Part shown: piece after piece, positions 3,875 to 63,305 of the stretch
Position numbering within the stretch: position 1 is the first letter of the stretch
How the letters are laid out: every line of letters starts with the position of its first letter
NCBI RefSeq assembly: GCF_044324785.1
Contig: NZ_CP172127.1
DNA length: 64,000 bases
Origin: Escherichia coli
GTDB taxonomy: Bacteria > Pseudomonadota > Gammaproteobacteria > Enterobacterales > Enterobacteriaceae
Reading direction: 5' to 3' (one strand)
The notes under the pieces: model-generated
What the model was told of the DNA's origin: nothing
What the model saw: the letters and a program-made list of their open reading frames with translations, nothing else
Databases searched by the model: none
Translations under genes and position numbers: made by a program

Positions 3875-4885
3875 ATGAGTATTTCTTTGAAAAATATTGA
3901 TTTTGCTAAAGGTCCTGTTGATTCCCTCCATCATGATTATTACTTATGGCGAGGGAAGAACATTGAGGATAAAAGACTTTTTCTCGTTTTCTCATCTCGG
4001 GGAGCAGGTCCTGGAGAATTTAGTTTTTTCAAAACTTTTGATGCGCTTAATGTAAATGTTTTGCATGTTACACCCTCTGATTTTTCATGGTACCAAAAAG
4101 GGTTAGTCGGTTTAGGGAGTGATTTGCCTTCTGCATTTAAAGCCCTATCTGACCGAATAGATAATTTCTGTATTTATCATAAAATAAAACAAATTATCTG
4201 TGTAGGGGCTTCCATGGGAGGATATGGTGCTTTAATTTATGGGGCTTTATCTAGTAGAAAAATAAAAACAACACTTATTCTTTTTGGCACCGAAACAATA
4301 TTAAAACTTCCTTATTCTAAAAGTTCTGAGAGTGAATTTGATATTCTCAAAAAATTTAAAGATGTAAGGTTTCTAGATTATTCTGATCTTGATGTGAATA
4401 TGATATTTGGTGAGTTTGATATTGTAGATACTTATTGTGCTTTATCGATGCGACATGATCGAAATTTTTCATTTTTTTCATGCACTAGCGCCTCACATGT
4501 TGTTCCGGAATACTTAAATAGACAAATTGGAATTGTTAATTTTTTTACAGACTTCTTATCGGGTGGAAGATCTTTTATTGGAAGAGGCCACATTGCTTCT
4601 GAGCTTTATCCTGAGGATATTTCTCCTCTTCTGTTCTCGAAACAATTTACTGAGGAATACAATAATGCCCTCCTCTGTTGCTTGAAAAAATATCCTTCAT
4701 TTGGGTTTGCATGGAATAGATTAGGCGTATATTTACACAATATAGGAGATCTGGCTGGGTCTTTAGCAGCATTAAAAAGAGCATTTTTCATCAACCCTGA
4801 TTATCCAAATACAATTGAGCATCTTAACTCGGTAAGAAATAAACTAAAAACTTTTAGTTTTTATGTATACTTGTGTGAGGAATGA
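3875..4885 (+). CDS. capsule region 2 protein, alpha/beta-hydrolase-like (GxSxG)
   Basis: ORF 3866-4885 starts at GTG; in-frame ATG at 3875 after GGTGGG; GASMGG nucleophile-elbow-like motif; low GC. Confidence 0.5.
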   Translation: MSISLKNIDFAKGPVDSLHHDYYLWRGKNIEDKRLFLVFSSRGAGPGEFSFFKTFDALNVNVLHVTPSDFSWYQKGLVGLGSDLPSAFKALSDRIDNFCIYHKIKQIICVGASMGGYGALIYGALSSRKIKTTLILFGTETILKLPYSKSSESEFDILKKFKDVRFLDYSDLDVNMIFGEFDIVDTYCALSMRHDRNFSFFSCTSASHVVPEYLNRQIGIVNFFTDFLSGGRSFIGRGHIASELYPEDISPLLFSKQFTEEYNNALLCCLKKYPSFGFAWNRLGVYLHNIGDLAGSLAALKRAFFINPDYPNTIEHLNSVRNKLKTFSFYVYLCEE

Positions 4886-4934
4886 ATAGCAATATATCTC
4901 AATATCTAAGAGCTGGTTTTTATATCGTTCATAG

Positions 4935-6177: not shown

Positions 6178-8205
6178 TTAGCCAAATCTGACCTTGCAGA
6201 ACATAATTAATTTGCGGTAATAGCGTATTACCCGTCCCGCTTTTTTTCGGGTAATAAACATCGGCTTACGCGGCGTCTGGATTAAATATTCCGCAGCTTC
6301 CTCAACCGTAATAGGCTGTAGCCGTGTTGGGTGAATATATGTTGGGTAAACAATCAACGCCTGATAGATCAAGTCTGCTATCGTTAATTTTTGCTCGCGG
6401 CGCGGGCAATGATGTTCATCAACGGTTAAACCCCAACCGGCATAGAAGGGCAGGCCGTAACAATGAACTTGCTTGCCATGTAATAACGCTTCAAACCCGG
6501 ACAATGATGTCATGGTGTGCACTTCATCTGCGCGCTGAATGCATTGAATAATATCGGCGCCCAGTGCCTGATAATCAGCGAGTTCAGCAGTCAGTTCTGC
6601 CGGAATATCGCCCTTGCGATTCCCCACCAGTACATCCGGGTGCGGTTTATAAACAATGTAGGCGTGCGGATTGCGCTCGCGTACTGTGCGTAATAACTCA
6701 AGGTTGCTCTTAATCGAGACAGTGCCTGTTTTAATGGAGGCATCGTCCTCTACCTGACCCGGCACCAGGATAACTTTTTTATCTTTGGCTTCGGCTGGTA
6801 GAGAGAAATCGGCTCCCAGGTTGTACTTACTCAGTTTGCTTTCAACCAGTCGCTGGCGTAATTTTTCAGCTCGCATCTTCTGCGCCAGCGTTAGCTGGCT
6901 ATGATTCAGCAGCACTTCCAGATCGCTGGGGCGTGTGGCGTCATAGTAAATACCGCGTTTATCCAGCACCAGCGATAGCGGCGGCAGCAGGTCAGAGCCA
7001 AGTCCGGATGAACGCAGAAAACCATCTTCCATTCGCCATAACGGCAGTGATTTTCGCTGCGCTTCGGCTCGCCATTGCTGTTCTCCCTTTACACCCCATA
7101 CCACGCAGGCGCTCGCCGCAGTACAGCGACGTGAAAAACTCAGCCGGTTTGTTGCCGTTTGCAAGAAAGGTTTCAGGATCGCTGACTTCCACAGCGTTAA
7201 GCCTGGCGCCCATAAATAACCATCACGCTGTTGCAGATGTCGACGTTGTAATTGCAGCCATTGCAGCACGGTAAATAGATCGCTTACTTCTCCCGTTTGC
7301 GGATCGATATAGCGACAGTAACGCAGGTATGCAGCGGCAAAAAGTTCCTCCAGCGTGGCAGAACCGCGTCGGGCAGATAACAAAGCGGACTGTGGATGAC
7401 GATCGTCGGTTAAACCCCAACCTGCATACCAAGGCTGGCCGAAACATGTTACTGGTTTTCCTGCCAGCAAGGCTTCAAAGCCGTACTGGGAGGTCACGAC
7501 GTAAACCTGGGAAACGTGTCGCAATAGCGACTGCGGGCTGACATTCTCGGCAATCAAACGTACTCGTTGCGTGGCACGCAGATCAGCGAAATAACCTGTT
7601 TTCTTTCCTTCCAGTACATCTGGGTGCACCTTCACCCAAATTTCGGCTTGAGGATTTTCCGCCATCGCGGCTTCCAGCATGGCAGCAAACTCATGCGGGC
7701 CAGCATTGCCATACGTCACTGACATATCATTAAATGTCTGATCGACAACCAGAACGATGTCTGCACGTTCTGACTCATCAGCCACAAACGCAGGTGCCAG
7801 GTTATATTTCGACAAATCTCCGGTCACGATGGTGTGCATCGCTTCTCTGGCCTGGCTTATCAGAGCTGTATTTCCGGCTTTATCCTGTACCAGTTTCTCC
7901 AGTGCTGAAGGCTTGCTGGCATCGTAGTAAATGCCACAATCATCCACCACCAGAGAAAGCGGCGGCTCGCCATTGACGCCAAGATCCAGCGAACGCACAA
8001 ATCCATCTTCCAGACGAATGACGGGTTTTCCCGCTGCTTTGGCGATGGCGACTGGTTTCGCCGCGCTGGGACGATGTCCCCACACGGCGATAGCATCAAC
8101 TTCTTGCGGAACAGGGCGCAGCAGAGAAAGTTTCTGGCACGGTTGCGCCAGAAATTTCTCCAGATGCGGAATACGCCAGATGCCAGGCGAGTAAATGCCA
8201 ATCAT
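6178..8205 (-). CDS. kpsC: capsule poly-Kdo linker transferase KpsC
   Basis: 675-aa protein with duplicated KpsC-type halves; 4-bp overlap with kpsU stop (translational coupling). Confidence 0.85.
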
Positions 8206-40056: not shown

Positions 40057-40613
40057 CTGCTCTCCAATGACTAGTCTAAAAACTAGTATTAAGACTATCA
40101 CTTATTTAAGTGATATTGGTTGTCTGGAGATTCATGGGGCCAGTCTAATGTGTATCCGGGATGGATGTTTACCAGAACCTTCTCTGTTCCAGTGTGTGGA
40201 GTTTTACAGAAGAGGCGACTGTATGCAACTCTTGCCCCGTAACTGTCTTTATTCGTTTCTCCACACTCTCCGGACATTGTAAATTCCAGATGTGTGGCAG
40301 TGTGTTTTTCGTAAATCGTACACAATGCATTTTTACACGGAGTTCAGCCAGTCGTATCACTGAGAGTTTTTTTCTGATTTGTACCACTCATGCAGCAGTG
40401 ATAAGGAGATATTTTCTCTGTCGGGCCAGCAGGGGCGGTGCCACCTGTTTAGTTTTCTTATGTTTGGTAAAAGAGAGGCTAAAATATATACAACAGGCGT
40501 ATGTAATGATTCATATTGTTAATCATTAACCAGTAAGAATTAATGTAGTGGATCGGTAATTCAGGACACCTCGAAATCCTGTTAATGTTAAAACAGTGAA
40601 AATGGGGTGATGC

Positions 40614-40931
40614 ATGAGCAAAACTCGTCGGACTAAACGCACCTTTTCCCCGGAGTTCAGGCTCGAAGCTATCGAGCAAGTAGTTAAATACCAGCGCGAT
40701 GTCAGAGAAGTCGCGCTGGCACTTGAGCTCAATCCTGACCATTTGCGTAAATGGATACGGTTGTATAAGCTGGAACTTCAGGGTATTGAGCCCGCTGGTA
40801 ATGCCATACCCCTGAACAGCGAGAAATTCAGCAGCTTAAAAGCGCAGATAAAGCGCCTTGAGATGGAAAAAGAAATACTAAAGCAGGCTGCCGTGCTGAT
40901 GAGCGAAATCCCCGGCAAGCTGTCGCGCTAA
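40614..40931 (+). CDS. IS3-family transposase OrfA; downstream orfB truncated
   Basis: 105 aa with HTH and leucine-zipper-like C-terminus; orfB-like frame continues to about 41060 and is cut. Confidence 0.65.
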   Translation: MSKTRRTKRTFSPEFRLEAIEQVVKYQRDVREVALALELNPDHLRKWIRLYKLELQGIEPAGNAIPLNSEKFSSLKAQIKRLEMEKEILKQAAVLMSEIPGKLSR

Positions 40932-41099
40932 TCACACTGCTGAAAGCAAAGCGGCCAGTGCGGATTATTTGTCATTTATTCGGTGTTCACCGTAGCGTTT
41001 ATTACGCGCAGGTGAAGCGTCCTGTTAATGTATCAGCGCCAATGATATAAGACAGTAATTAGGATTCGGACGATTTCCTGGACTGCTTTATTATGCCAG

Positions 41100-42650
41100 C
41101 CCGCATTGTTGGCGGTACATTTCAGGGATGACTGCACCCAGCGAAAATTTTATACGCCGCTCGTTATACCATCTGATGTAAGCATCCACATGCCGCATGA
41201 ATTTTTCAGGCGTGATACCCAATCATTTACGCCCATAATATATTTCAGTTTTCAGTCTGCCGAAAAAGCCTTCGCATGCAGCATTATCAGGCGAGCATCC
41301 TTTACGGGACATTGAGCGAATAAGGCCTGCTGTATTCACTCTTTCCAGCCAGGCCAGCGATAATGCCCACCTCTGTCACTGTGTATCACCGGTCGTTCGC
41401 CAGCATTTAACGTTTCGACAGCGTTATCCAGCATAGTGTTGACCAGTTCAGCATCGGGGCGTGTACTGAGAGACCAGCTCACAACTTTTCTGTCGAAGCA
41501 GTCCACCACCGGTGATAGCCAGACTTTTCCTGCAGGAAGCTGGAACTCCGTGATATCTGTCAGCCATTTCTGATTAGGTTGCTCCGCCTTAAAATCTCTG
41601 GCGATAAGGTTATCCGGAGAAGGTCCGATTTCTCCGCAATATGAGCTGTAGCGGCGATGACGGTTACGGCTGACGACAAGCTGTTCCTCCACCATAAGTC
41701 TGCGTACAACCTTTTCTGATAGCCGATCCCCCTCATGCCTGAGCATCGCATGCAGGCGACGATAGCCATAACACTGGTAATTACTGTTAAATATATCTGT
41801 CAGCATCGTACGTATCGTGGCGTATTTATCACTGGCTTTCAGTGCAGCCCGGTGATAAAAATAACTGCTACGGGCAAGGCCCAGAACATGCAGTAATTCT
41901 GTCAGGGGATATGTTTATCTCAGGGCATCAGTAATCTTTGTTTTTTCTCTGTTGTTCAGGTGACTGATGCTGATGCCCGGGTCTTTTTTTATTATTTCCT
42001 CCGCTTTTTTCAGAATATCCAGTTCCATCTGCCGGCGGCGTATTTCCTGATTCAGTCGGGCGACTTCCTCCCGCAACGCATCGCGTTCTGCCTCCAGGGA
42101 AGGGGCGTTATGTTTACGCATAGTCTGGTAAGCACTGTTGCCGATAATTTCATCTTTCCATTTATACAATACCGCGCGACTGACACCAATACGCCTGGCG
42201 ATTTCACTGGCTGATCCTTGTCGTGTACAGAGTACCATGACAGCCTGACGTTTGACTTCTGGTTCAAAGGACGCAACCGGATTGGTCTTACTGGTAAATA
42301 CACGTCGTCTGTCGGGGGAACGTTCATTAACCCAGCGAGCGAGCATATCGGTACAGGGATAACCCAGAGTCCTGCTGGTAAACGCCAGGCAGCAGCCGTG
42401 GTTAAGATAATGTTCAACGGCAACCTGTTTTTGCTCATCGGAGTAACGGTGCTTATGACGAATGGATTCTTTTGATCCGCCACCTGCTTCCCATGAACGG
42501 ATCCAACGCCGCAGATTTCTTTTCGAAGGGTAGCCCAGTTCGCGTACGACGGGGCCAGCTTCTTACCATATTTGAAATAAAGCTCAATGGTGCGAATTTT
42601 TTGTTCTTCAGTAAACATGTTTCATCTCCTGAGAGTCCAGGAAATCGTCC
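41100..42650 (-). mobile_element. degraded IS3-family insertion sequence (orfA and orfB frameshifted)
   Basis: ORFs 42052-42618, 41915-42346 and 41336-41806 encode pieces of IS3-type OrfA (HTH) and OrfB (DDE core) in different frames. Confidence 0.6.
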
Positions 42651-42868
42651 GCATCCCCTAACGGTCAAAAATCGTGGCGTTGATACAGGGGAAATCCGTA
42701 GTTTTTGATGCCAGCCATAACGTGTTTGACTATAAAGTATTACGAAAGGACTTTAATGAGCCCCTGGAATAATTCATTAAAGTAATTTACTTCGCTATCC
42801 TTTTCCCAGTTACTCACAAAGAAAAATATTCATAAAATAATTCCCGGGCTGGCAGCCCGGGATGATTA

Positions 42869-44131
42869 CTATTTTAATGGATTGTTAATCTTTGCATATT
42901 CAAACGGGCTGATACATTGTTCTCTGTTCGCACCCAGAAAATCTGCCCACCACTGTAGCATCAGTCGACGTTCTTCCAGATGTTCTGCTTTATGGATATA
43001 TGCAGCACGTACACCATTACGCTCCTGATGGCTCATCTGACGTTCCACAGCATCGCGGGACCACAAACCTGATTCAATCAATGCACTGCACGCCATCGCC
43101 CGGAATCCATGACCACAGACTTCCTGGGTTGTGTCATATCCCATCACCCTCAGGGCTTTATTTACAGTATTTTCACTGATCGGTTTACGCGGGTCATGTG
43201 CTCCCGTAAAGATCAGACCATTTTCACCAGCCCATGTCTGTAGTTCTGTCAGTATGGCTACAGCCTGTTTGCTGAGTGGCACAAGATGTGGTGTTCGCAT
43301 CTTGGAGCCCCGGTGTGAGTATTTTACGCCTGGCAGAGGTTCGCGTTCGGCTGGAATAGTCCACATGGCATTGTCAATATCAATTTCAGACCAGCGGGAA
43401 TATCTGAGTTCACTGGAACGAATAAAAACCAGTAAATTCAGCATAACTGCCAGTCGGGTGACAGGCTGACCTTTATAACCGTCAATACGCGACAGAAGTT
43501 CAGGCAGGCGTGAAAGATCCAGAGCAGGGCGATGCTGGCGTTTTACCGTGGTCAATGCACCAGCCATATCCAGAGCCGGGTTATATCTGATGATGCCAGA
43601 CTGTACGGCATAACGCATTACAGCAGATATTCTTTGCTGCAGACGACTGGCGATTTCATAAATTTGTTTTGCTTCTGCAGCACGAACAGGGATAAGCAGG
43701 TCCGGGGTATTGAGTGTTGTGATATCCCGGTTGCCGATAAAGGGGAAAACGTGTGTCTCGAGGCTTTTGATTACTTTATCGCTGTGTGATTGTGCCCATT
43801 GTTTATTACTGGCATGCCAGCGTCGTGCAATATGTTCAAAAGAGAGTTGTAAATCAGGGACTACTTTTTTAGCTCTTTTTTGTTCGCAAGGGTCAATCCC
43901 CTCTGAAATCAGTTTTCGGGCCTCATCCCGTTTTGTACGAGCTTCGGAGAGAGAAACTTCTGGATATACACCAAGTGCCAGAGTCTTCTCCTTACCCAGA
44001 ATACGATAACGGAGACGCCAGTAACGGGAACCATTAGGATGAACCAGCAGGAACATGCCAGCCCCGTCAGTGAGTTTATAAGCCTTGTCAGTGTGCTTTG
44101 CAGCCCGGATTTTTGCGTCAGTCAGTGCCAT
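42869..44131 (-). CDS. P4-type (IntA-like) tyrosine integrase
   Basis: 420 aa; MALTDAKIRAAKHTDKAYKLTDGAGMFLLVHPNGSRYWRLRYR N-terminus typical of P4-family integrases; next to tRNA-Phe 3'-end repeat. Confidence 0.85.
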   Translation of the reverse strand: MALTDAKIRAAKHTDKAYKLTDGAGMFLLVHPNGSRYWRLRYRILGKEKTLALGVYPEVSLSEARTKRDEARKLISEGIDPCEQKRAKKVVPDLQLSFEHIARRWHASNKQWAQSHSDKVIKSLETHVFPFIGNRDITTLNTPDLLIPVRAAEAKQIYEIASRLQQRISAVMRYAVQSGIIRYNPALDMAGALTTVKRQHRPALDLSRLPELLSRIDGYKGQPVTRLAVMLNLLVFIRSSELRYSRWSEIDIDNAMWTIPAEREPLPGVKYSHRGSKMRTPHLVPLSKQAVAILTELQTWAGENGLIFTGAHDPRKPISENTVNKALRVMGYDTTQEVCGHGFRAMACSALIESGLWSRDAVERQMSHQERNGVRAAYIHKAEHLEERRLMLQWWADFLGANREQCISPFEYAKINNPLK

Positions 44132-44287
44132 AGTTCAGCCTTCTGAATGCGTTAAAGAGGGTACAAATTCTGTCGAACTGGGGTATACCCGCAATTATAC
44201 CCACACAATGGGGTTGATGTGGGGGGAATCTGGTTGAGTTCGGTAGAATTGATTTGGAGGCAGAACGCTTAAATTGTGGCGTTCTGA

Positions 44288-44317
44288 AACGAAAAACGGA
44301 CCTCCGTGGAGGTCCGT
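44288..44317 (-). terminator. rho-independent terminator-like hairpin
   Basis: ACGGACCTCC-GT-GGAGGTCCGT perfect inverted repeat followed by T-run on the minus strand. Confidence 0.4.
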
Positions 44318-44328
44318 TGATATGAATT

Positions 44329-44347
44329 TGGTGCCCGGACTCGGAAT
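44329..44347. repeat. 19-bp direct repeat of tRNA-Phe 3' end (att site)
   Basis: TGGTGCCCGGACTCGGAAT is the reverse complement of the tRNA-Phe 3' terminus; sequence diverges from the tRNA beyond 19 nt. Confidence 0.6.
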
Positions 44348-44594
44348 GAAACTGGTTGTATAACAAGTTGTTTTATATTGATTGTTTTGTGTTTGTTATT
44401 TTTGAGGCCACCAATGAGGCCCCCATGTGCAATTCGAATTCTTTTGACGCTATAATCCCTCTTTCTTGTGGTTTGTTGTAATCATTTTGTCTGGTTCGAT
44501 ATGCTGAATCGCGGAATCGAAGTGACAACAAAATACAGAGATTTATAAAATACCTGGCTACCTGTGTTAGGGAGCGTTAACGCACAGATTTTGT

Positions 44595-44921
44595 TTATGG
44601 CTGCCAGAAATGATCTGATGGTTTGTCGTCTGGCTCTGCAAGTACCCTGTTGATATCCCGGGAACCATGAACGATACGTTCGATACGAACTTCAGTATCC
44701 AGTACCCTGAACAGCAGAAGGTAACGACCATACGAACAACCTCTGATCCCAGCCCCTAACTCGGGTCTTTCTCTGTAGAGTACTGGCGATTCGGCTATCA
44801 ACAGACATTGTTGGTAAAGCTCTTCGGTAAAACTGATTGCACGGACAGGATTATCCTGAGCGATCCAGTCACCTATAGCTTCAAGATCGTGTTCTGCTAA
44901 TGGTGAAACAGTCAGTTTCAT
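44595..44921 (-). CDS. parE: ParE/RelE-family type II toxin
   Basis: 108 aa; overlaps upstream antitoxin gene by 4 bp. Confidence 0.7.
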   Translation of the reverse strand: MKLTVSPLAEHDLEAIGDWIAQDNPVRAISFTEELYQQCLLIAESPVLYRERPELGAGIRGCSYGRYLLLFRVLDTEVRIERIVHGSRDINRVLAEPDDKPSDHFWQP

Positions 44922-45181
44922 ATTGGCTGTTCACCTTCTGCCATCTTTTTGTATTTGTGCGTCAGTCGCCCGAATACCTCTTCAGCACTTTTACTTTCAC
45001 CGCTGTTGATGCCTGCGGTCACGGCGCTCTGGAGTGATTCAAGCTTTATCTGCTGTTCCCGTTCTTCCAGAGCACGAAGTCCGGCACGAATGACTTCACT
45101 TGTATTGTTGTACCGACCACTTTCTATTTGTTCGCGGATAAACGTTTCAAAGTAAGGACTGAGGGATACACTGGTAGGCAT
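44918..45181 (-). CDS. parD: ParD-family (RHH) type II antitoxin
   Basis: 87 aa; ...FIREQIESGRYNNTSEVIRAGLRALEEREQQ ParD-like signature. Confidence 0.7.
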   Translation of the reverse strand: MPTSVSLSPYFETFIREQIESGRYNNTSEVIRAGLRALEEREQQIKLESLQSAVTAGINSGESKSAEEVFGRLTHKYKKMAEGEQPI

Positions 45182-45252
45182 GGTTATTTTCTCGCCGATT
45201 GATCACTATCAATTAATAATAGTTAATATTCGTGAATTGTAAAATACCTCTT

Positions 45253-46122
45253 TTATGCCTTGCTGCTTTTGTTCACTGTGCTTGCCAGGGCTTCCGGGTA
45301 GTGTCTGGCAATAATATCATTAAGCCTGTCAACCAGCTCTGGTTTCCTGAACGTGATGTGCGCGGAGCCCTTCTTAAAGTATCTGATGCTGAACATCTCA
45401 TCTTCATAGTCCTCTTTACCCTGAACAGACTGGATGTGATCATCCAGATGAATGGTGATGTTTTCCCGGTTGTCGGGGATCGGTTTGCCGCTGAACAGGT
45501 GTAGCATTCTTTCCAGATCGGCAAGTCGATCTGCCTGTGGGCCGTTGTTCAGATGAAACCCCCACCGGTCCCACCTCACCAGGTTGTTGACGATAATTTT
45601 ACTGCCAAATTTGCAGGGGCAATTGGTTTTGTAATTCCAGCTCAGTCCCCTGAAGACGTTGATCACCCCTCGCTCAAACACCTCATCCTTATTCTGGTGC
45701 AGTTGTTCAAATGTGCTCAGAATGTTCGCTTCGCAGATTTCCGGAAAATTATCGTACTCCAGTGACCGGTACCATGTATCACGGGCTTGTGCATCCATTA
45801 ATGACAGCATCCCTGAACGTTGCATCAGGTCACGCCAGAGTTCGCGATCGAGATTCCGGGTGATGGCTTTCATTGCGGTTTCCGGTTTCTCCATCAGCCA
45901 GCAACCGCAGCGAAAATCCTGTTTCATGGCCCAGTCCCGGGCGGTTTTACCTCCAATACTTTCTGTCATTGCTGATATTTCAGCCAGTTGCCGGATAAGT
46001 GTGTCGATTTGCAGCAGTGTACTCTTTCGTACAGCCAGAATGTGGCGGATACTGGTTGAGCAAATAACGTCCGTATGCCCGGTGACCACTTCCGGACGGG
46101 AGGCTGTGATATCTGACATCAT
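45253..46122 (-). CDS. conserved island hypothetical protein (paralog of 14167-15009)
   Basis: 289 aa, near-identical to copy 1 over most of its length. Confidence 0.6.
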   Translation of the reverse strand: MMSDITASRPEVVTGHTDVICSTSIRHILAVRKSTLLQIDTLIRQLAEISAMTESIGGKTARDWAMKQDFRCGCWLMEKPETAMKAITRNLDRELWRDLMQRSGMLSLMDAQARDTWYRSLEYDNFPEICEANILSTFEQLHQNKDEVFERGVINVFRGLSWNYKTNCPCKFGSKIIVNNLVRWDRWGFHLNNGPQADRLADLERMLHLFSGKPIPDNRENITIHLDDHIQSVQGKEDYEDEMFSIRYFKKGSAHITFRKPELVDRLNDIIARHYPEALASTVNKSSKA

Positions 46123-52044: not shown

Positions 52045-52929
52045 TCAGAACAGACGCTCCCACAGTGTGATCAGCAGGTGGATAATGCGGTCCCGGGCTT
52101 TACGCAGAAGCTGTAACATCCAGGCCGGAAAACTGAAACGGGCAACGGCGACGTCAAAACTTTTCCCGATGGTTTCACCAAAAGTCTGTTGTGCGTGTTT
52201 CTGGGCCTGTTCAGAGCGGTTTTCTCCCCGGATATGTGAATACACCGCGCTGGTTGCCTGTGGTGGCAGTGCGTGGATCATCAGCGACACAAACGCCGGA
52301 AGGTTCCAGCCGACAGGTGCAGCAACGGAGAGTACCGGAAATGATGAAGGGAACAGGGTTGCCACCCGGGCTGTCACCGTCGCCAGTGAGAGCGACTGCT
52401 GACGGGACGGGCATTTTTCTGTGGCATTCCATTCTTCAGCAGGAAACACGCGATCGGCATGGCTGAGAACAAACAGAAAACGCGAGGGATCTGCGCCTTC
52501 ATTCAGTAAAAACTGATGCATGGCAATATCAGCAGCATACGCACGTTCATCAGCCCGCAGGATCCAGATAATCAGATCCAGTTCCGGTAGCAGCTGACGA
52601 TAAAGTGTCCGGTATTCCTGATCATGCTGCGGTGTTTCACCAATGCCGGGCAGATCGACCAGCGTCATTCTGCGTTCACCGAACTGCAGGGTAAGACGAT
52701 GAGCCTGGCGGGTGCAGCCGTTCAGAGGATGTGTGGCGCAGATACGGGACTGAAAAATGGCATTACACAGACTGCTTTTGCCTGTTCCGGATTTACCCAT
52801 AATGCCAATCACGGGCTCGTAATGAATAACACTGTGGAGATGTTCAAGGATTTTCTGGCGAATTTCTTCAGGAAGAAACGTCAGATGTGATTTCACTTGT
52901 GCGGAGAGGGAAGAATGGCTGAATGACAT
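52045..52929 (-). CDS. YeeP/YfjP-family GTPase, second copy
   Basis: P-loop GIMGKSGTGKSSL; 294 aa. Confidence 0.75.
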   Translation of the reverse strand: MSFSHSSLSAQVKSHLTFLPEEIRQKILEHLHSVIHYEPVIGIMGKSGTGKSSLCNAIFQSRICATHPLNGCTRQAHRLTLQFGERRMTLVDLPGIGETPQHDQEYRTLYRQLLPELDLIIWILRADERAYAADIAMHQFLLNEGADPSRFLFVLSHADRVFPAEEWNATEKCPSRQQSLSLATVTARVATLFPSSFPVLSVAAPVGWNLPAFVSLMIHALPPQATSAVYSHIRGENRSEQAQKHAQQTFGETIGKSFDVAVARFSFPAWMLQLLRKARDRIIHLLITLWERLF

Positions 52930-53034
52930 ACCGTTATCCTGTTGATTTCGCTGAACCGGATCACACTAATCCGGCTTATCATTCAGGTAATATGGACGTG
53001 AAAAAATCTGGAGTGACAGAGTGCGGGAGGTGAG

Positions 53035-53997
53035 ATGACGGCACAACAAAGTGATGCGCTGCGTGAGATTGCTAATAAGGCCAGAGTTACCACCATTCTT
53101 CAGTGTAAGGCCTGGAAAGATACCCAGCGAATACTGAAGCGCAGCGGACTCGTGTGCAGAGAACGGTCAGAGCCGTTTGATCCGGAGAAACATTTTGACT
53201 GTTATACGGTGCGTTATCTGTACCTGCTTAACATAATGGCACTTGAGCTAAAGTCAGATACACGGATTAAGGTTGAGGTGGGGCAATGGTATCGCATGAC
53301 GGGTAAACGTTTATCACTTAATGTCCCGCCTTTTATGCTGATCCCGCGTAATATCCGGAGAAAAGTGGACGGATTCAGACAATCCAGACAATCAGAAGAT
53401 GAAGCAACCAAAAATCCGCCTCAACCGTTCACGGGCAGTTTGTATAAGGTTTTGAGCAGGGACAGCGATTCGGCTGAGCTGGACGCCTGGTTTGCTGAAC
53501 CGCCGCTGACACGGCAGGAAGTGTGGGAGGGGAGGCGTGTTACAGATTTTGATCCATGGGCGCTGTCTTCGTTTATTTGCCGTTCAGAATCCCCGACGTT
53601 TGAACTTTTTTACCAGGAATATAAGCGACTGGGATTAAAATCTCTTTTTGTATCAGGGGTAATGTTTGAACAGTTTTTAACAGGGCTAAGTTTCAGAAAA
53701 TATGGGGACTGGGTTGAATCTCAGTTACTGGAATCACTGGGAAATGTGATGTTTTTCATGCTGCTTTATGACATGGAAAATCTGGATAAGTTTATAAAAG
53801 AACTGATGGACATTAATGTTCAAAGTGAAGATTCGAAGGAAAAAGGGAAATCACGAAAAGAGAGAATGCTGGAGTATATCAACTCATATATCCGCAATGT
53901 TTATGGAAGATTCCTTTGTACGTCAAAAGAAAGGTACGAACAGCATAAACGCAAAAACAGCAGCAAAAAGAAAAACGGTTCTGGTGGAACTCATTAA
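53035..53997 (+). CDS. hypothetical protein (orphan)
   Basis: 320 aa, ATG with GGGAGG SD; Lys-rich C-terminus; no recognisable motif. Confidence 0.5.
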   Translation: MTAQQSDALREIANKARVTTILQCKAWKDTQRILKRSGLVCRERSEPFDPEKHFDCYTVRYLYLLNIMALELKSDTRIKVEVGQWYRMTGKRLSLNVPPFMLIPRNIRRKVDGFRQSRQSEDEATKNPPQPFTGSLYKVLSRDSDSAELDAWFAEPPLTRQEVWEGRRVTDFDPWALSSFICRSESPTFELFYQEYKRLGLKSLFVSGVMFEQFLTGLSFRKYGDWVESQLLESLGNVMFFMLLYDMENLDKFIKELMDINVQSEDSKEKGKSRKERMLEYINSYIRNVYGRFLCTSKERYEQHKRKNSSKKKNGSGGTH

Positions 53998-54848
53998 CGG
54001 GAATAATCCCCTGCTGTTTTCTGCATAAACAGACGATCAGCTGATAAGATGAGTTTATCCAGCATTTCAGCCTGCGTCAGATTATTCTTTTTTGCCATTT
54101 TCCGGAGTGCATTCCTGGCTTCCGGAGAAATCAGGGCACTTATCTGTACCCGGGAATCGGTTTTCTCATACCGGAACATTTTCTGGTATGAGCACTTCAT
54201 GCGCCTGAGAAAATCATTCTGCTGATAAACTAATTCTTTTAACTTTTGAGGTTCAGTACCGACAGAATAGATTTTCATGAAGACACGGCGCACATAAGCT
54301 ATTATGAACAGACGTGACTCCCCTGAAGCTTTAAATTCTGAAATATCAGGACAGTGACGTTCTTCGTCAGTGCAATGTTTTTGCAGATACGCCCATGCCC
54401 ATTTGATATGTATCCGCCGGGAACCAAGCCATGTCATGGGGTTCACTTTTTCAGCATATGACCATAAAAAATGAACGACATACAAGAAGTCAGATACATT
54501 TTCTGTCCCGGTTAGCCTTATAAGCTCCTGTAGCCATTTTCTCGTCACACGAATCCTTGCCTGATGATTAGCTGGAGCTGCTTCTGTGGCAAACAGTCTG
54601 GCATACAGACAGGAAGTTCCGTAATCTGCATATTGCTCACCTGAGAGTCGGACAATACTGTCAGGAACATGATATATAAACATCCATACCCAGAATGCGG
54701 CTACAGGGTCTTTTTGCACCCACTCCGGAACAACGTCTCTGCCTGCATTATCAGCATTAACAGAAGGTGATTTATCGTTATGTCGGTAATATTCATATTC
54801 CATCCGACTAAAAACATGATCAGATTCATCTGGTGAATGCACAGACAT
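53994..54848 (-). CDS. hypothetical protein with C-terminal RHH-like segment
   Basis: Track ORF 53994-54863; preferred start MSVHSPD preceded by AGGGAG; 3' end overlaps the convergent gene by 4 bp. Confidence 0.5.
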   Translation of the reverse strand: MSVHSPDESDHVFSRMEYEYYRHNDKSPSVNADNAGRDVVPEWVQKDPVAAFWVWMFIYHVPDSIVRLSGEQYADYGTSCLYARLFATEAAPANHQARIRVTRKWLQELIRLTGTENVSDFLYVVHFLWSYAEKVNPMTWLGSRRIHIKWAWAYLQKHCTDEERHCPDISEFKASGESRLFIIAYVRRVFMKIYSVGTEPQKLKELVYQQNDFLRRMKCSYQKMFRYEKTDSRVQISALISPEARNALRKMAKKNNLTQAEMLDKLILSADRLFMQKTAGDYSR

Positions 54849-55810
54849 GAACTCCCTGGGCATAAATGCACAACCAACTCTATAGAACTCTTTACCCCCC
54901 CTCTTATCACCTCTGTCAGTAAATTTCGCCTGAATCCCCTTTTATCCATACATCAGAAAAAATGCAATAACGTTCATGGACTCTTTTCTCTGATTTACAT
55001 AAAAACACAGAAAATTACAATGTGATTAATATCGCGTTTTTTTAAAAAATTATATTGACATCATGTTATTTCCTGTAGTTTGCAATAAAAAATTTTCTTA
55101 AAATATTTATATGAATATTTTTGATGCCTCAACATGCTGTCGTTATATAGAGTGTCTTCTCATCATTTATGGTTATTTCTCTCAATGCGCATACGCTCTG
55201 TCAGGGCATGTCTGTAGCTGCCATGATGGGGAATGAGAACTCAGCAAAAGGATTTTGGATGCAGTGAAGTTCTCCCGGAGACGGTTCTTCTGAGGTGGGG
55301 GTGGCATCATATCCTCTTACATAAGATGATGGCGTGCGCGGGAAAGCTTTCTTCTGTACTCAGGTTGTTGTTGGTTATCCCCGGTCGTCATTGTTTTCCT
55401 GACATTAAGATCCTGATTCCAGGATCTATAGCACAGTCGTTTCCTTGTGTGCTGTTATGCTTCTGCTCAGTTCAGAACAATTGCTTCATCCGGCATGGAG
55501 AATTCCGGTGAGTGAGGCAGTAAGAAATGACTGACATGAATGTTATATGTGAAGGGGCCGGAGAGACGTCATAATCAGTATGGCTGTCATTCTGGCTGGA
55601 AAATGCGATCACTTTCCGGGGTAAAAGACAACATGGAAGCTGACGAACGGGATGCTCCGGATGGTCTTTTCAGGGAGGCCTGGGTAAATAATTTCAGAGT
55701 AAATCTGTATGTTTTTTAAACAGTAAAGATCCATGCTGGCCGTGAAAAACTGAAATCAACACTCAGTCTGCATGGATGTCTGAAGATGTTGAGAATGTCG
55801 GGAATGGTAC

Positions 55811-55906
55811 TATACACGTATTTTACTAAGTATTTTTACTAAGCATTTCAGTAAGTGTTATACACGTATTTTCTACTAAGTGTTTTACCAGACATACACG
55901 TATTTT
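55811..55906. repeat. iteron-like direct repeats (T)ATACACGTATTTT x3 with associated ACTAAGT motifs
   Basis: Three copies spaced about 35-48 bp apart inside a 1.6-kb non-coding region. Confidence 0.45.
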
Positions 55907-56468
55907 CATAAACACTTCTACAAGTGTTTTCGTTAAGCATTGCTATACACATCCAGTTTAGTAAATCTTTACGTTAACTAAATCAGTTTAATGCTGCTGT
56001 AAAACCTTTCTGTTTAAGCAATCAATCTGCTATTCGATTTTACTGATGTTACGTTTAACCTTTCCTTAGATTTCGAGTTTCGACGTTAGCTTGAGAAAAG
56101 TATCTTTACGTAAAGCCCAGTGAATTAACTCAAATCCGATTGAGGTAACCTGATGCGATTTACTGTGAGTTTGCGATAACACTGTTAAATGGCTTATGGA
56201 TGATTTTGTAACGGCGAGATTGATAAGGTGATTAACTGGCCCTGGTGTTTTTTCTCAGCGTAAGGTGATTATCTTCATCATAAGGCTCTTTTCAGAAAAA
56301 GTGTGATGATTGGTTGTGGTGTTTTGATTCAGATGAGGATCTGCCAATGATTATGATGTATTGTAAGAAATAACGCCTTCAGAATGTTGGAGCATGCACT
56401 TACACAAACTGTTTTTCTAAAATTAAGGGAACAGTTTAAAGAGTATAAACTGTTCATCTTCTTCAGGA

Positions 56469-56999
56469 TTAAGCTACATTGTTGTTATGACTGACAGGAT
56501 TGTTTTCTTCCCCTGACTCTGGGCTTAACAGTCCCTGGCGTTGTAGATATTCACTGACTGACATTCCAGAACTACGGATCCTGTCAGAGATTTTACGAAA
56601 TTGATCCTTCCATTCTGCAGGTAATTTCTTAATTTGTCTGACTTTACAGGCTACACTGTACGGGGTTCGCCCTAGTTTCTCTGCCAGCCAGAAAAGGTGT
56701 TTACCAATTTCATCGTCCGGTACATCCTCCAGAACATCTCGCAATAAACTCTCGTCTGCCTCATTCCATGCCACACCAGCATTTGGGAAACGAGGATCGA
56801 TCTCTCTTTCCTTCTTCTCCTTCTTACTTTGCTCTTTTCGGGATGATACAGATACGACAGAACGTTCTTTTACCGCTGTAATTGCCATAACTGCATTGAG
56901 CAGAGATCTGCGCTCCACATCGTTCAGCATTTTTCCTTCACAGATCAAATCATTCAGGATGTCAATGACTAGATTCAGACTTTCTTCTGTTAGCTTCAT
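56469..56999 (-). CDS. hypothetical protein (orphan)
   Basis: 176 aa; charged central linker; no recognisable motif. Confidence 0.5.
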   Translation of the reverse strand: MKLTEESLNLVIDILNDLICEGKMLNDVERRSLLNAVMAITAVKERSVVSVSSRKEQSKKEKKEREIDPRFPNAGVAWNEADESLLRDVLEDVPDDEIGKHLFWLAEKLGRTPYSVACKVRQIKKLPAEWKDQFRKISDRIRSSGMSVSEYLQRQGLLSPESGEENNPVSHNNNVA

Positions 57000-57668
57000 A
57001 TTTCAGACCTTGAAGTATGTAGATAATCAGCACAATTACTAATGTGATAAATATCAGAAGATAATTTACAGGTAAACCGGAAAATACATCTGAAGAATAA
57101 AGGCCTCAGCTTAACGTTTCAGCCAGTTTGTGAGCTGATTGAGGTACGGCGATGACATTAACGGGAATTACTCCCCTATAGCTCTGAGCTTATTTTTCAC
57201 CCTGGCAACATATGGTGGCTACTGCGCATGGTTTTGGAGTAGATATCTTACTACTCGTAGAATTGTGCTTACTGGTCAGGCCAGCGCACAGGCATTCCGT
57301 GCAATCAATAGAACACTGGTTTTTTAGTCTTCCGTTACCCATCAGGATGTTAGTGCAGATTCCGGTGTATTCGATCAGTTGTTCGGCGAATCAGCGATCG
57401 ATCACGATGCGATTTCGTATGTTAGGGATGCTGGTATGATTACTCGCTGAAAAATAATGTGAAAAGGCAGTTTTTCTTTAGACATTTAGCTCATTCATGC
57501 TGTTGTTTTACGTTTTGCTGTCGTGTGCAGGATTATCTTTTCGTTACGGGACGATTCATTCCGTTTTAATCAGGAGCTATTGGCGTTGCTCATTGGTGGG
57601 ATGCCGTAAAGTTTTACCGCGGCGATTAATGATGTGAAGTCAATCCAAATCAACGGAGATCTCTCATC

Positions 57669-61045: not shown

Positions 61046-61920
61046 TTACGATTATATTCACTCTATCGTTACACATTCCATTAGTATTACTCTTGTTATC
61101 GTATTCATTCCATCCCTCAATCATATTTACTGTAACTCATATGATGTTCAGGTAAGTTATTCTCTACCATTCTACTGATGATATTCATCTGTTCTCATTT
61201 TCACTGAAACAGCAATTAATTTTAATCTTATCCATCATGAGCTGTATTTTCTTAACAATGGTTGTTTATCTGAAGTGTTTTAACTATTCTGATGAACATC
61301 AATTCTTTTGTCATTACTGATTAACCGAATGTTTACTTTTTGATAAGGTATCCATGATTCTGTAACGATTAACAGAGCTGGATAAACAATGGAATTGACA
61401 GGAGAGATTCCTGATTATGTTTGTTCTGGGTTGTATTATCTAAGATGCAGGATGAAAATCATGTCAGTGGTATTTTTTATTCTGCTATCGTGAGCCGTGA
61501 ATGTTCATGTCCTTAAGAACAGATTGAATGAGCGCATATAAGTTTATTGCATTGGCCTTGTACACAGTTTTTACAACCACTGAGAGCAAGTTTGTAGTTT
61601 ATGATGTGATTGGTCGCAATATGTTTCTTAACCTTCTGGACGTGGTGTTTTATCGCGTATTTACAGTATTTCGTGATGTTTTATTGAGTCTGTATTTTCT
61701 TTACTCCTCGTTTATCTCATCTCTTTAGCTAATACCATCAGATAATCCATTTCTTTCTGCATAATGCTGCGTATCGTTAATAACCCGTCGTATCCATTCT
61801 GCTACAGCATGCCTGATAAATACCATCTGTAAGTTATTACCGTTTTAGATCTGATTATGAGCGAAAGCATTAATTCGTTCACAGAGCTTAAAACATCATT
61901 AACTTTCAGGAGTCATCAAC

Positions 61921-62487
61921 ATGCCTAAATCTTACACACCAAACTGGTTTTTTACCGCTTTACTTGACAATCACATCAATCAAATGATGGCACGCTATTC
62001 CTGCCTGCGGGCCTTACGGATGGATTTCTTCTACAGGAAAGATACGCCTGATTTCTTACAACCTGATCATCGCTGGCTTGAATTGCAGTTGCGTATGCTG
62101 CTGGAGCAGGTGGAACAATTTGAAAATATCGTTGGTTTCTTCTGGGTGATTGAATGGACGGCTGATCATGGTTTTCATGCGCATGTGGTTTTCTGGATCG
62201 ATCGTCAGAGGGTTAAAAAAATATATCCCTTTGCGGAGCGGATAGCGGAATGCTGGCGGTCTATTACGCATAACAGCGGTTCGGCACACCGCTGTACATA
62301 TCAGCCGCATTATACATACAACATCAACATTCCTGTGCGCCACAACGATCCTGAAAGCATCGATAATATTCGCGGTGCCCTGCATTATCTGGCAAAAGAA
62401 GAGCAAAAAGACGGGCTGTGTGCCTACGGCTGCAATGAAGTTCCTGAACGTCCTGCTGCAGGGCGTCCTCGTAAGCCTCACTTCTGA
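61921..62487 (+). CDS. YfjJ-like inovirus Gp2-type protein (HUH replication-initiator-like)
   Basis: 188 aa; HUH motif FHAHVVFWI; SD AGGAG. Confidence 0.7.
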   Translation: MPKSYTPNWFFTALLDNHINQMMARYSCLRALRMDFFYRKDTPDFLQPDHRWLELQLRMLLEQVEQFENIVGFFWVIEWTADHGFHAHVVFWIDRQRVKKIYPFAERIAECWRSITHNSGSAHRCTYQPHYTYNINIPVRHNDPESIDNIRGALHYLAKEEQKDGLCAYGCNEVPERPAAGRPRKPHF

Positions 62488-62744
62488 AGCTTAAATCCTG
62501 AGCTTCCTGTCCTGGAAACACTCCGTCGGTAAAAACTTACCGCCTTGCTTAATGATGTGAACTGAAGTCAACGGAGATCATTCACTCTGAACCACATCCG
62601 GTGTTCTGTCCCTTGTCGGTGACCTGATCTTCCCGTTCTGCCCCGGTTCTTCACTTATTCCATCAACCCCATCCGCAAACCATAACACGTCAGCTTATTC
62701 ACGGGCAGGACGCATTGTGGGCTGCGCATAACGGAGCATATCTT

Positions 62745-63305
62745 ATGAATGCTATCCCTTATTTCGACTATAGCCTGGCCCCCTTCTGGCCATCTTATCA
62801 GAACAAAGTCATCGGCGTCCTTGAGCGTGCGCTGCGTGAGCAGTCCGGCTCACGGATACGGCGGATCCTGCTTCGTCTGCCGTGTGAATATGACAATACC
62901 TTCAACAGCAGAACGACCTGGTTTGGTATGGATTTTATCGAAACCGTCAGTGCGCTGATGAATGCAACACCCGGACGTGACCTTTGCTGGCTCCTGACCC
63001 GTCATCCTGAAAAACCGGAATACCATGTGGTGCTGTGCGTCAGACAGGAGTATTTCGACGGCCCCGAACTGGATCGGTTGATTCTGGATGCCTGGAGTAA
63101 CGTGCTGGGTTTCGCGTCACCAGGTGAAGCAAAGCCGTACCAGAAGCAGATCACCCGGGATGTGGTACTGGATCGCCGGTCACCGGACTGCGAAGCCCTG
63201 TTTAAGGACCTTATCTGGGCGTTCAGTGATTTCGCCCGCGATCGCCGTGGAGTGCGCGATCCGGAAGCCCGTTGCCTCGCCGGTAATCCCGGTTGGCAGT
63301 GCTGA
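62745..63305 (+). CDS. YagK/YfjJ-related protein with partial HUH motif
   Basis: Track ORF starts at TTG 62715; ATG at 62745 after ACGGAG; motif PEYHVVLCV has one His only. Confidence 0.5.
   Translation: MNAIPYFDYSLAPFWPSYQNKVIGVLERALREQSGSRIRRILLRLPCEYDNTFNSRTTWFGMDFIETVSALMNATPGRDLCWLLTRHPEKPEYHVVLCVRQEYFDGPELDRLILDAWSNVLGFASPGEAKPYQKQITRDVVLDRRSPDCEALFKDLIWAFSDFARDRRGVRDPEARCLAGNPGWQC

Follow-up and report, generated by a model that had tools for sequence, protein, structure and literature searches.

The question raised by this locus is what two Escherichia coli genes that face each other and end in the same four base pairs do, and whether they belong together at all. Both lie in a stretch of 64,000 nucleotides (NZ_CP172127.1), hereafter the window. 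Gene A (53035-53997, plus strand; open reading frame (ORF) and RefSeq coding sequence) encodes a protein of 320 amino acids (WP_000126799.1) and gene B (53994-54848, minus strand) one of 284 amino acids (WP_000110727.1); RefSeq names each of them hypothetical protein. An initial annotation, made from the sequence alone, had described convergent genes sharing 4 bp at their stops, placed between a GTPase module and a 1.6-kb gene-free region with iterons. The first point is borne out by the sequence and the ORF list, in which the two stop codons interlock in the palindrome TTAA (53994-53997, both strands), read as TAA on the plus and on the minus strand with a one-base offset, and the second by the RefSeq context and the repeat analysis. 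The same annotation took the genes for orphans, or alternatively for two unrelated cargo genes that abut, and these descriptions did not survive: A and B both belong to families with relatives in several genera, their convergent adjacency is kept in 17 loci and 12 allele types, and they are backbone genes of the CP4-57-type integrative islands of Enterobacterales, where they occupy a fixed position. We propose that B, very probably a ribbon-helix-helix (RHH) DNA-binding protein by its profile matches, may act as an allele-specific regulator of the island, a reading to which we give an even chance, and we hold a functional coupling of A and B to be somewhat better supported than that.

A convergent B-family partner stands beside A in all 17 loci inspected, which were drawn from E. 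coli, an Enterobacteriaceae metagenome-assembled genome (MAG), Serratia, Salmonella, plasmids and metagenomes and comprise 12 distinct allele types. The order GTPase (minus), A (plus), B (minus) and the 4-bp overlap recur in every intact E. coli-clade variant that was opened (L002, strain CFT073; L003, MRY15-117; L004, MS 85-1; L005, FDAARGOS_1262; L006, the Enterobacteriaceae MAG; L019, CUPS04; L020, ESBL 15; and L028, plasmid pNDM5_LS003). The TTAA junction is present in 8/8 of those checked at sequence level (window, L002-L006, L019 and L020), and the codons flanking it are wholly different between the two main allele types. Three distant B relatives (L007, L011 and L012) have a convergent partner of about 300 amino acids across gaps of 179, 122 and 71 bp; the first two partners are A homologues (hhalign 99.6% and 98.7%, about 30% identity), and the third aligns with the A family over its full length at 29% identity. 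Conversely, a convergent B-family gene lies 22-112 bp away from each of the distant A homologues of Salmonella and metagenomes (hhalign 99.9-100%). B occurs without A in five island types, and A without B was never seen among the loci examined. Read from these loci, the pair is ancient and its dependence one-sided, in that A needs B. The two proteins are not paralogues of each other (hhalign 0.2%).

Of 5426 complete E. coli genomes, 741 contain A-family DNA by blastn and 195 the B allele of the window; strain 55989 and about 184 further complete genomes match the 2.1 kb around the pair at 100% identity. With a profile of B, an exhaustive search returned 197 cluster representatives at E<=1e-3, mostly full-length, in proteins of 260-370 amino acids, and its structural neighbours in the AlphaFold database are uncharacterised proteins of Citrobacter, Hafnia, Salmonella, Serratia, Klebsiella, Limnobaculum and Aeromonas. 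Relatives of A were found in Serratia, Salmonella and Hafnia; a scan of species-representative genomes with A peptides gave a single locus outside E. coli, the scan being pattern-based and probably too strict for a census. Neither family is present in the phage collection searched, and the plasmid copies of the pair represent the same island inserted into plasmids. Some copies are damaged. Two Salmonella enterica contigs have, beside an intact A, a B-family gene broken into two ORFs (188+164 amino acids, L022 2116-3083; 144+164 amino acids, L023 1242-2209), which is either a pseudogene or a sequencing frameshift and, if real, the nearest thing to an A without functional B. Five genomes carry an insertion sequence, IS2, inside the stretch 52900-55000, and in strain 22AR0750 (L021, 3452-4412) only the first 84 codons of A are left, B and the non-coding region having been deleted between two IS1 copies. 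The insertions and this remnant indicate that the module is still decaying in some strains.

The surroundings of the pair define its place in the island. On its left, all on the minus strand, follow a YfjP/YeeP-type GTPase (MMR_HSR1; 52045-52929, ORF list and RefSeq), a WYL/helix-turn-helix (HTH) regulator, a hypothetical protein, DUF905 and DUF932 and, further left, antirestriction, RadC, DUF987, CbeA/CbtA, DUF5983 and DUF957 genes; on its right lie 1.6 kb without genes, then a 176-residue ORF and then a gene of the Gp2/YfjJ family. CP4-57-type islands have a module of P4-type integrase, AlpA, YfjI and the Gp2-like YfjJ on one side and GTPase, WYL regulator, DUF905, DUF932, antirestriction, RadC, DUF987 and CbeA/CbtA on the other. 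B thus sits at the junction of the two modules, its transcription directed away from the AlpA/YfjJ side, and it is divergent from AlpA or YfjJ in all lineages examined. In islands that lack A, the GTPase gene can directly follow B on the same strand (2 of 5 types). In CP4-57 of strain K-12 (L018, 7852-13856) the slot between yfjJ and the GTPase gene yfjP is filled by abpB/abpA, yfjM and RnlAB, not by A and B; judging from the anti-phage abpAB genes and the RnlAB toxin-antitoxin, the yfjJ-yfjP junction can host defence cargo as well.

B consists of an N-terminal domain, a helical bundle and a C-terminal RHH. Its last 45 residues or so fit a strand-helix-helix pattern and match RHH models (PF10723 RepB-RCR_reg and PF01402 RHH_1, clan Met_repress), and these family profile matches, which place the RHH at residues ~230-275 (54024-54161, minus strand), confirm the RHH-like end that had been suspected for the minus-strand protein. 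The bundle (residues ~148-225; 54174-54407, minus strand) starts with a W-A-W-x-Y-L helix and is collinear with the four-helix bundle of MatP, residues 148-272 of B aligning with residues 12-129 of MatP (profile E 2.1e-4, hhalign 91.8%). When this match was dissected, the RHH alone gave 47% and the bundle without the RHH 28% over 26 columns, against 0-1.5% for negative controls. B is therefore best described, as far as profiles go, as MatP-like in architecture and probably a remote relative, not a member of the MatP family. Outside the B family, no relatives of the first ~145 residues were detected. The AlphaFold2 monomer model is all-helical, with a mean predicted local distance difference test score (pLDDT) of 67. 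One B-family member from an island without A (P0091) has a weak match to WH_III-A in PADLOC-DB v2.0.0 (5e-5). YfjH of K-12, encoded by a gene of about 318 amino acids divergent from alpA and suspected on that account of being a relative of B or A, is related to neither (hhalign 0.4% and 0.2%).

Three start codons are candidates for B, namely ATG at 54863 (the mechanical ORF), ATG at 54848 (RefSeq) and GTG at 54842. In L005, the closest diverged allele, both ATG codons are mutated and the codon corresponding to the GTG is the sole start; this GTG sits 9 nt downstream of an AGGGAG Shine-Dalgarno sequence, the best spacing among the three.

The alleles of B differ at two levels. Between types, the variable unit is a cassette that holds the tail of A, all of B and ~620 bp upstream of B (53810-55487, from blastn breakpoints against L002, L003, L004 and L006): DNA identity of the window to other islands is ~90% up to 53772-53810 (about codon 250 of A), is then lost, and is regained at 55487-55564. 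Upstream DNA of B cannot be aligned between type 1 and type 2. Within type 1, the window and L005 are 94% identical in the upstream DNA and ~95% in the RHH and the A tail, and inside flanks of 90-100% identity they drop to 48-65% nucleotide identity at 54220-54700 (minus strand), a hypervariable block that corresponds to residues ~50-210 of B and also appears in the amino acid comparison of eight islands. Among these eight islands, which hold six B alleles, pairwise amino acid identity is 91-100% for the GTPase, 64-100% for residues 1-250 of A, 17-100% (median 37%) for residues 50-210 of B and 30-100% for the C-terminus of B. Gene-wide positive selection on B was not found, the ratio of nonsynonymous to synonymous substitution rates (dN/dS) being below 1; since the proportion of synonymous differences (pS) is high too, the alleles of B are old and imported by recombination, not products of fast evolution in place. 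For six diverged alleles dN/dS is 0.2-0.55 in B and 0.3-0.6 in A, which holds even with synonymous sites near saturation; both are therefore constrained coding genes under purifying selection, as is the neighbouring GTPase gene at 0.13-0.27. Co-evolution of the A tail with B as a sign of interaction was considered and rejected, because the type-1 A tails are ~96% identical while residues 50-210 of B diverge. The A tail tracks the adjacent DNA and not the hypervariable domain, and therefore reflects linkage, not demonstrated co-evolution.

The upstream DNA of B contains short direct repeats phased at 10-11 bp, and these change with the type of RHH, for which reason they look like operators. The β-strand of the RHH reads RVQISALIS in type 1, including the window, and RVQINVKIS in type 2. 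In Arc, MetJ and CopG alternating positions of this strand face the DNA, and the two types differ at alternating positions (S/L versus N/K, residues 237 and 239). Type-1 loci have, at a place equivalent to that of the type-2 array, three GTAWWTT units at 10-bp phase, clean in L005 and with one extra mismatch in the window, where a repeat scan gave the candidate operator (tGTAATTTTC / tGTGTTTTTA / tGTAAATCAG) at 54991-55020 on the minus strand. In type 2 the unit is GAATAGWT on the strand of B, 130-190 bp ahead of the start codon, and its 2-4 copies follow one another with a period of exactly 11 bp: L003 (7891-7931) and L028 have four of them, L020 has three and L004 two, and in L002 the spacing is looser. 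The loci L003, L004, L020 and L028 contain no further copy, and the unit is absent upstream of type-1 B genes. The RHH strand type and the GAATAGWT array thus change together, as specificity alleles would, both being linked in one cassette. In a plasmid copy from Klebsiella, the DNA upstream of B contains three AAACCWKG units at 11 bp. By one fixed criterion, phased runs were found in 5 of ~12 independent B lineages. The background was 6/318 for windows of the 64-kb sequence and 4/53 for AT-rich ones, and shuffling gave no more than 7/200 (no more than 3/200 for those regions in which a run is present). In the window the repeats overlap a sigma-70-like promoter site, TTTACA-16-TACAAT (54994-55021, plus strand, 10/12 matches), that points away from B, and in L003 the array overlaps another such site (7907-7936, 9/12) that also points away from B, so that the same overlap is seen in both types. 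The case that B may bind phased repeats in its own upstream region and control a divergent promoter is circumstantial but coherent.

Thus, we propose that B would be a repressor or architectural protein of the island with sequence-specific DNA binding. It would bind cooperatively to the direct repeats of 10-11-bp phase about 130-190 bp upstream of its own start, which overlap a promoter-like element firing toward the non-coding region and the YfjJ/AlpA side, and so set the state of the junction much like the immunity repressor of a phage or of an integrative and conjugative element (ICE). The differences in the RHH strand would give the types different operator specificity and keep co-resident islands from cross-talk, and the hypervariable domain may provide each allele with a private surface for self-association or for binding of a ligand or partner. 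In this mechanism A may be an accessory protein that evolved in this context and acts with or through B, because A is never found alone. Run-through of convergent transcription may add reciprocal interference, which the existence of the pair does not require. A more specific form, in our opinion quite improbable as a whole, would make B a Stl-like sensor-repressor whose RHH silences the island and whose hypervariable domain senses an inducer from a specific phage, plasmid or competing island, each allele listening for a different trigger, with A as a matched helper, perhaps an anti-repressor or effector released on induction.

Several observations weigh against this proposal. The type-1 repeat of the window is weak, being AT-rich and having one copy with an extra mismatch; 7 of the ~12 B lineages lack a phased run by the fixed criterion; and the T-rich 11-bp arrays of two further lineages (L011 and L026) could be phased A-tracts. 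That RHH type, upstream DNA and A tail vary together is explicable by linkage in one recombination cassette, and neither the iterons nor the intergenic region between the GTPase gene and A change with the type of B, for which reason they are unlikely to be type-specific targets of B. DNA binding, operator identity and regulatory targets of B are all inferred, and nothing links A to B physically. As for the structure of B, the AlphaFold2 model is only moderate and draws the RHH strand as helix or coil, and the MatP similarity is marginal in view of the 28% for the bundle alone. The window protein as a single sequence has no MatP match, and against the NCBIfam MatP model NF003471 the best B-family member (P0096) reaches 13.9 bits for a cut-off of 165. 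B has no C-terminal coiled coil as MatP has, ending 9-20 residues past the second RHH helix (about 5 in type 2), and sites like matS (GTGACRNYGTCAC) are not enriched in the window, with 7 at two mismatches or fewer versus 7.6 expected and none of the seven near the pair.

B can be compared with several known systems. The RHH regulators (CopG/Arc/MetJ, and CopB/RepA2 of IncFII plasmids, PF10723) resemble its C-terminal ~45 residues, and phased short direct repeats like those upstream of B recall the tandem operators of MetJ, omega and ParG; B differs from them in being 5-6 times larger, in carrying the RHH at the C-terminus behind ~230 residues of uncharacterised or MatP-like helical domains, and in that its binding is a prediction. 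With MatP (PDB 3vea, 4d8j and 7nyw) it has a marginal collinear match that covers a first bundle helix of the form W-x-W-x-Y-L, then a long helix and the RHH, and it shares the limitation to Enterobacterales and close relatives. Unlike MatP, a conserved chromosomal single-copy gene, B has an additional N-terminal domain of ~145 amino acids instead of a coiled coil and is island-borne and hypervariable. Like the immunity repressors (lambda CI-Cro, SaPI Stl-Str and ICEBs1 ImmR-ImmA), B is divergent from the excision and replication side (AlpA, YfjJ), has intergenic repeats, here candidate operators, overlapping a divergent promoter-like site, and exists in many alleles with co-varying upstream DNA within an otherwise conserved element; its DNA-binding domain is RHH and not HTH, no cognate anti-repressor or protease is recognisable, and the partner A is convergent, not divergent. 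No family model covers A or B beyond the generic RHH, and literature searches on MatP-like island proteins and on the CP4-57 backbone gave nothing relevant, nor was either family described in the papers searched. The principle of DNA binding is known; what is new is how the domains are combined, that the protein is hypervariable and has an obligate partner, and that the pair has its place in the backbone of a very common type of island.

Gene A has been less informative. Residues 1-250 are conserved and the C-terminal tail of ~65-70 amino acids is part of the variable cassette. No significant match was obtained in Pfam, NCBIfam, PHROGs, PADLOC or PDB sequences, either with the single sequence or with a profile of 17 sequences that includes members of 28-33% identity, and the AlphaFold2 model, all-helical, is unreliable (pLDDT 48) and too poor for a fold search. 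Some polar residues are invariant, among them R60, Y63, E81, R108-R109-K110, Y137, D150, E162 and E195, and for this reason A may have an enzymatic role. In some alleles a five-residue unit (RPDTR/PDTRP) is repeated in tandem near residue 75, with three copies in L006 (gene at 3940-4923), two in P0025 and one in the window.

The 3' overlap deserves separate consideration. Four base pairs leave no room for a terminator, so each transcript would run into the other gene, and the mRNAs of A and B must, by this geometry, overlap wherever both are expressed in the same cell. A terminator scan, which was a crude consensus search, revealed no terminator-like hairpin at the junction; the nearest ones lie 160 nt past the stop of A (inside B, plus strand) and 570 nt past the stop of B (inside A, minus strand), and such hairpins are also missing from the gaps of two of the three distant pairs. 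A 4-bp overlap alone is an uncommon but understood arrangement. The interlock is self-stabilising, since a mutation in either of its two central bases abolishes both stops. For the function of the pair the coding overlap is dispensable, since the distant pairs have gaps of 22-179 bp. The TTAA overlap is thus an E. coli-clade-specific compaction of an older convergent arrangement, and a regulatory role of any kind for it seems doubtful to us.

One explanation alternative to ours takes this overlap as the function itself, convergent transcription making the expression of A and B mutually exclusive by transcriptional interference or by RNase III cleavage of the duplex, as a bistable switch. The geometry is indeed kept in 8/8 E. 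coli-clade variants across very diverged alleles, and the junction and two of the three distant gaps lack the hairpins mentioned above, although the crude nature of that scan, the spacing of the distant pairs and a TTAA whose conservation need not reflect regulation all count against it and make the switch unlikely. At the other extreme, A and B might be coincidental neighbours. They have no sequence relationship and there is no sign of physical interaction between them; nevertheless the convergent adjacency extends across genera down to ~25-30% protein identity, A co-occurs with B, and no known family matches either gene over its full length, so that we consider chance extremely improbable.

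The two remaining explanations assign the pair a different task. A toxin-antitoxin-like or abortive-infection pair, with A as effector (toxin), B as RHH neutraliser, sensor or autoregulator and hypervariability arising from an arms race with phages or other mobile elements, was implied by the phage-challenge and toxicity assays suggested in the initial annotation. In type II systems such as ParDE, CcdAB, RelBE, FitAB and TacAT the arrangement is different: here the genes, convergent in all 17 loci, have separate promoters and do not form a bicistronic operon, and two large proteins are involved, one of them with its RHH at the C-terminus. Profiles detect no toxin fold or catalytic family in A, and PADLOC-DB v2.0.0 has no match for A, B or their distant relatives save the weak WH_III-A hit of P0091. 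Moreover, the pair occupies a fixed backbone position and not that of swappable cargo, A is under ordinary purifying selection, and B is kept in five A-less island types, which argues that its main role is independent of A; a defence or addiction role is thus distinctly unlikely. A module for segregation, replication control or DNA organisation, in which a MatP- or ParG-like B would act on the iteron-containing non-coding region with A as adaptor, and would work with the GTPase and/or the Gp2/YfjJ-like initiator during an episomal phase, strikes us as equally hard to sustain. It would agree with the remote MatP similarity of B and with the fact that RHH proteins such as ParG and omega bind centromeres or iterons. 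It would also fit the gene-free stretch of 1.6-2.1 kb that B adjoins in many lineages, with iterons in the E. coli clade, the GTPase directly after B on the same strand where A is absent, the resemblance of the YfjJ/Gp2 protein to replication initiators, and the label replication regulatory RepB family protein given to B in some genomes. That label rests only on the generic RHH match, however, and the GTPase is MMR_HSR1/dynamin-like, not ParA- or tubulin-like; B lacks the MatP coiled coil for bridging, the iterons are identical where the reading strand of the RHH differs and so are not matched to the allele, and the sequence of the gene-free stretch is not conserved in distant loci.

If B acts as an allele-specific regulator, as we propose, the consequences reach beyond this window. 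A large proportion of E. coli and of other Enterobacterales carry islands of the CP4-57, CP4-6 and CP4-44 types. These bear antirestriction, RadC and CbtA/CbeA genes, often with virulence or defence cargo, and their regulation is little understood beyond AlpA and the integrase. Two hypothetical proteins become a defined module made of a hypervariable RHH protein, candidate allele-specific operators and an obligate partner. As a master regulator, B would offer a handle on excision, silencing and cross-talk of co-resident islands and a natural set of orthogonal DNA-binding specificities; were it a sensor-repressor, the common CP4-57-type cryptic prophages would be inducible hitch-hikers with an unrecognised, MatP-derived class of master regulator. 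Should the pair serve defence or addiction instead, that module would be new.

The non-coding region on the right of the pair has features of its own. In distant island lineages, as in the window, the 1.6-2.1 kb upstream of the B-family gene are free of genes (window 54864-56468; L013/L014 2802-4500; L026 6576-8654; L027 5068-6742), with no sequence similarity detectable between these stretches. In the window the iteron block (55811-55950) has three copies of ATACACGTATTTT (55812, 55860 and 55894) interleaved with ACTAAG-type repeats and lies inside a conserved non-coding stretch (55487-56337). This iteron is also present in islands whose B is of another type (three copies in L002, two in L006, one in L003) and once in L005. 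The iterons are, on this distribution, a backbone feature, and as operators specific for a B type they were rejected, being the same in islands of both RHH types. The block adjoins the Gp2/YfjJ gene, which resembles replication initiators (PHROG 3584/713), and is a candidate replication origin or origin of transfer (oriT). A small conserved divergent ORF opposite B in the E. coli clade, which might have been a Cro-like partner, was also rejected, the ORF at 55540-55719 being frameshifted in L003, L005 and L020 and hence not a gene. A scan of 48-60 kb with Rfam gave nothing near the gathering threshold. Further right, 56338-57491, including the ORF of 176 residues (56469-56999, minus strand), is missing from all five variant islands compared and is an insertion specific to the island type of the window; the 176-residue protein has no PADLOC or PHROG match.

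On the left, the divergent intergenic region between the GTPase gene and A (52930-53034) contains nested inverted repeats (CTGAATGACATACCG...CGGCTTATCATTCAG), with 15-nt arms at 52919-52933 and 52972-52986 and CCGGAT-N7-ATCCGG at 52956-52974, whose outer stem would cover the start codon of the GTPase in its mRNA. Folding of this region as RNA gave ordinary energies (z-scores 0.3 and -0.8). It is near-invariant across islands, with about 1 difference per 100 nt versus ~7% in the flanking genes, and as this invariance extends across B types, the palindromes were ruled out as type-specific operators. Finally, the RefSeq annotation of the identical sequence of strain 55989 places a SLATT-domain gene and, next after it, a SMODS nucleotidyltransferase gene about 7 kb to the right of the pair (61555-62837), and on the left, at 40184-45553, a phosphorothioated-DNA-binding restriction endonuclease, an ArdC pseudogene, a MobH relaxase and a tyrosine recombinase; these are other defence and mobility modules of the same composite island.

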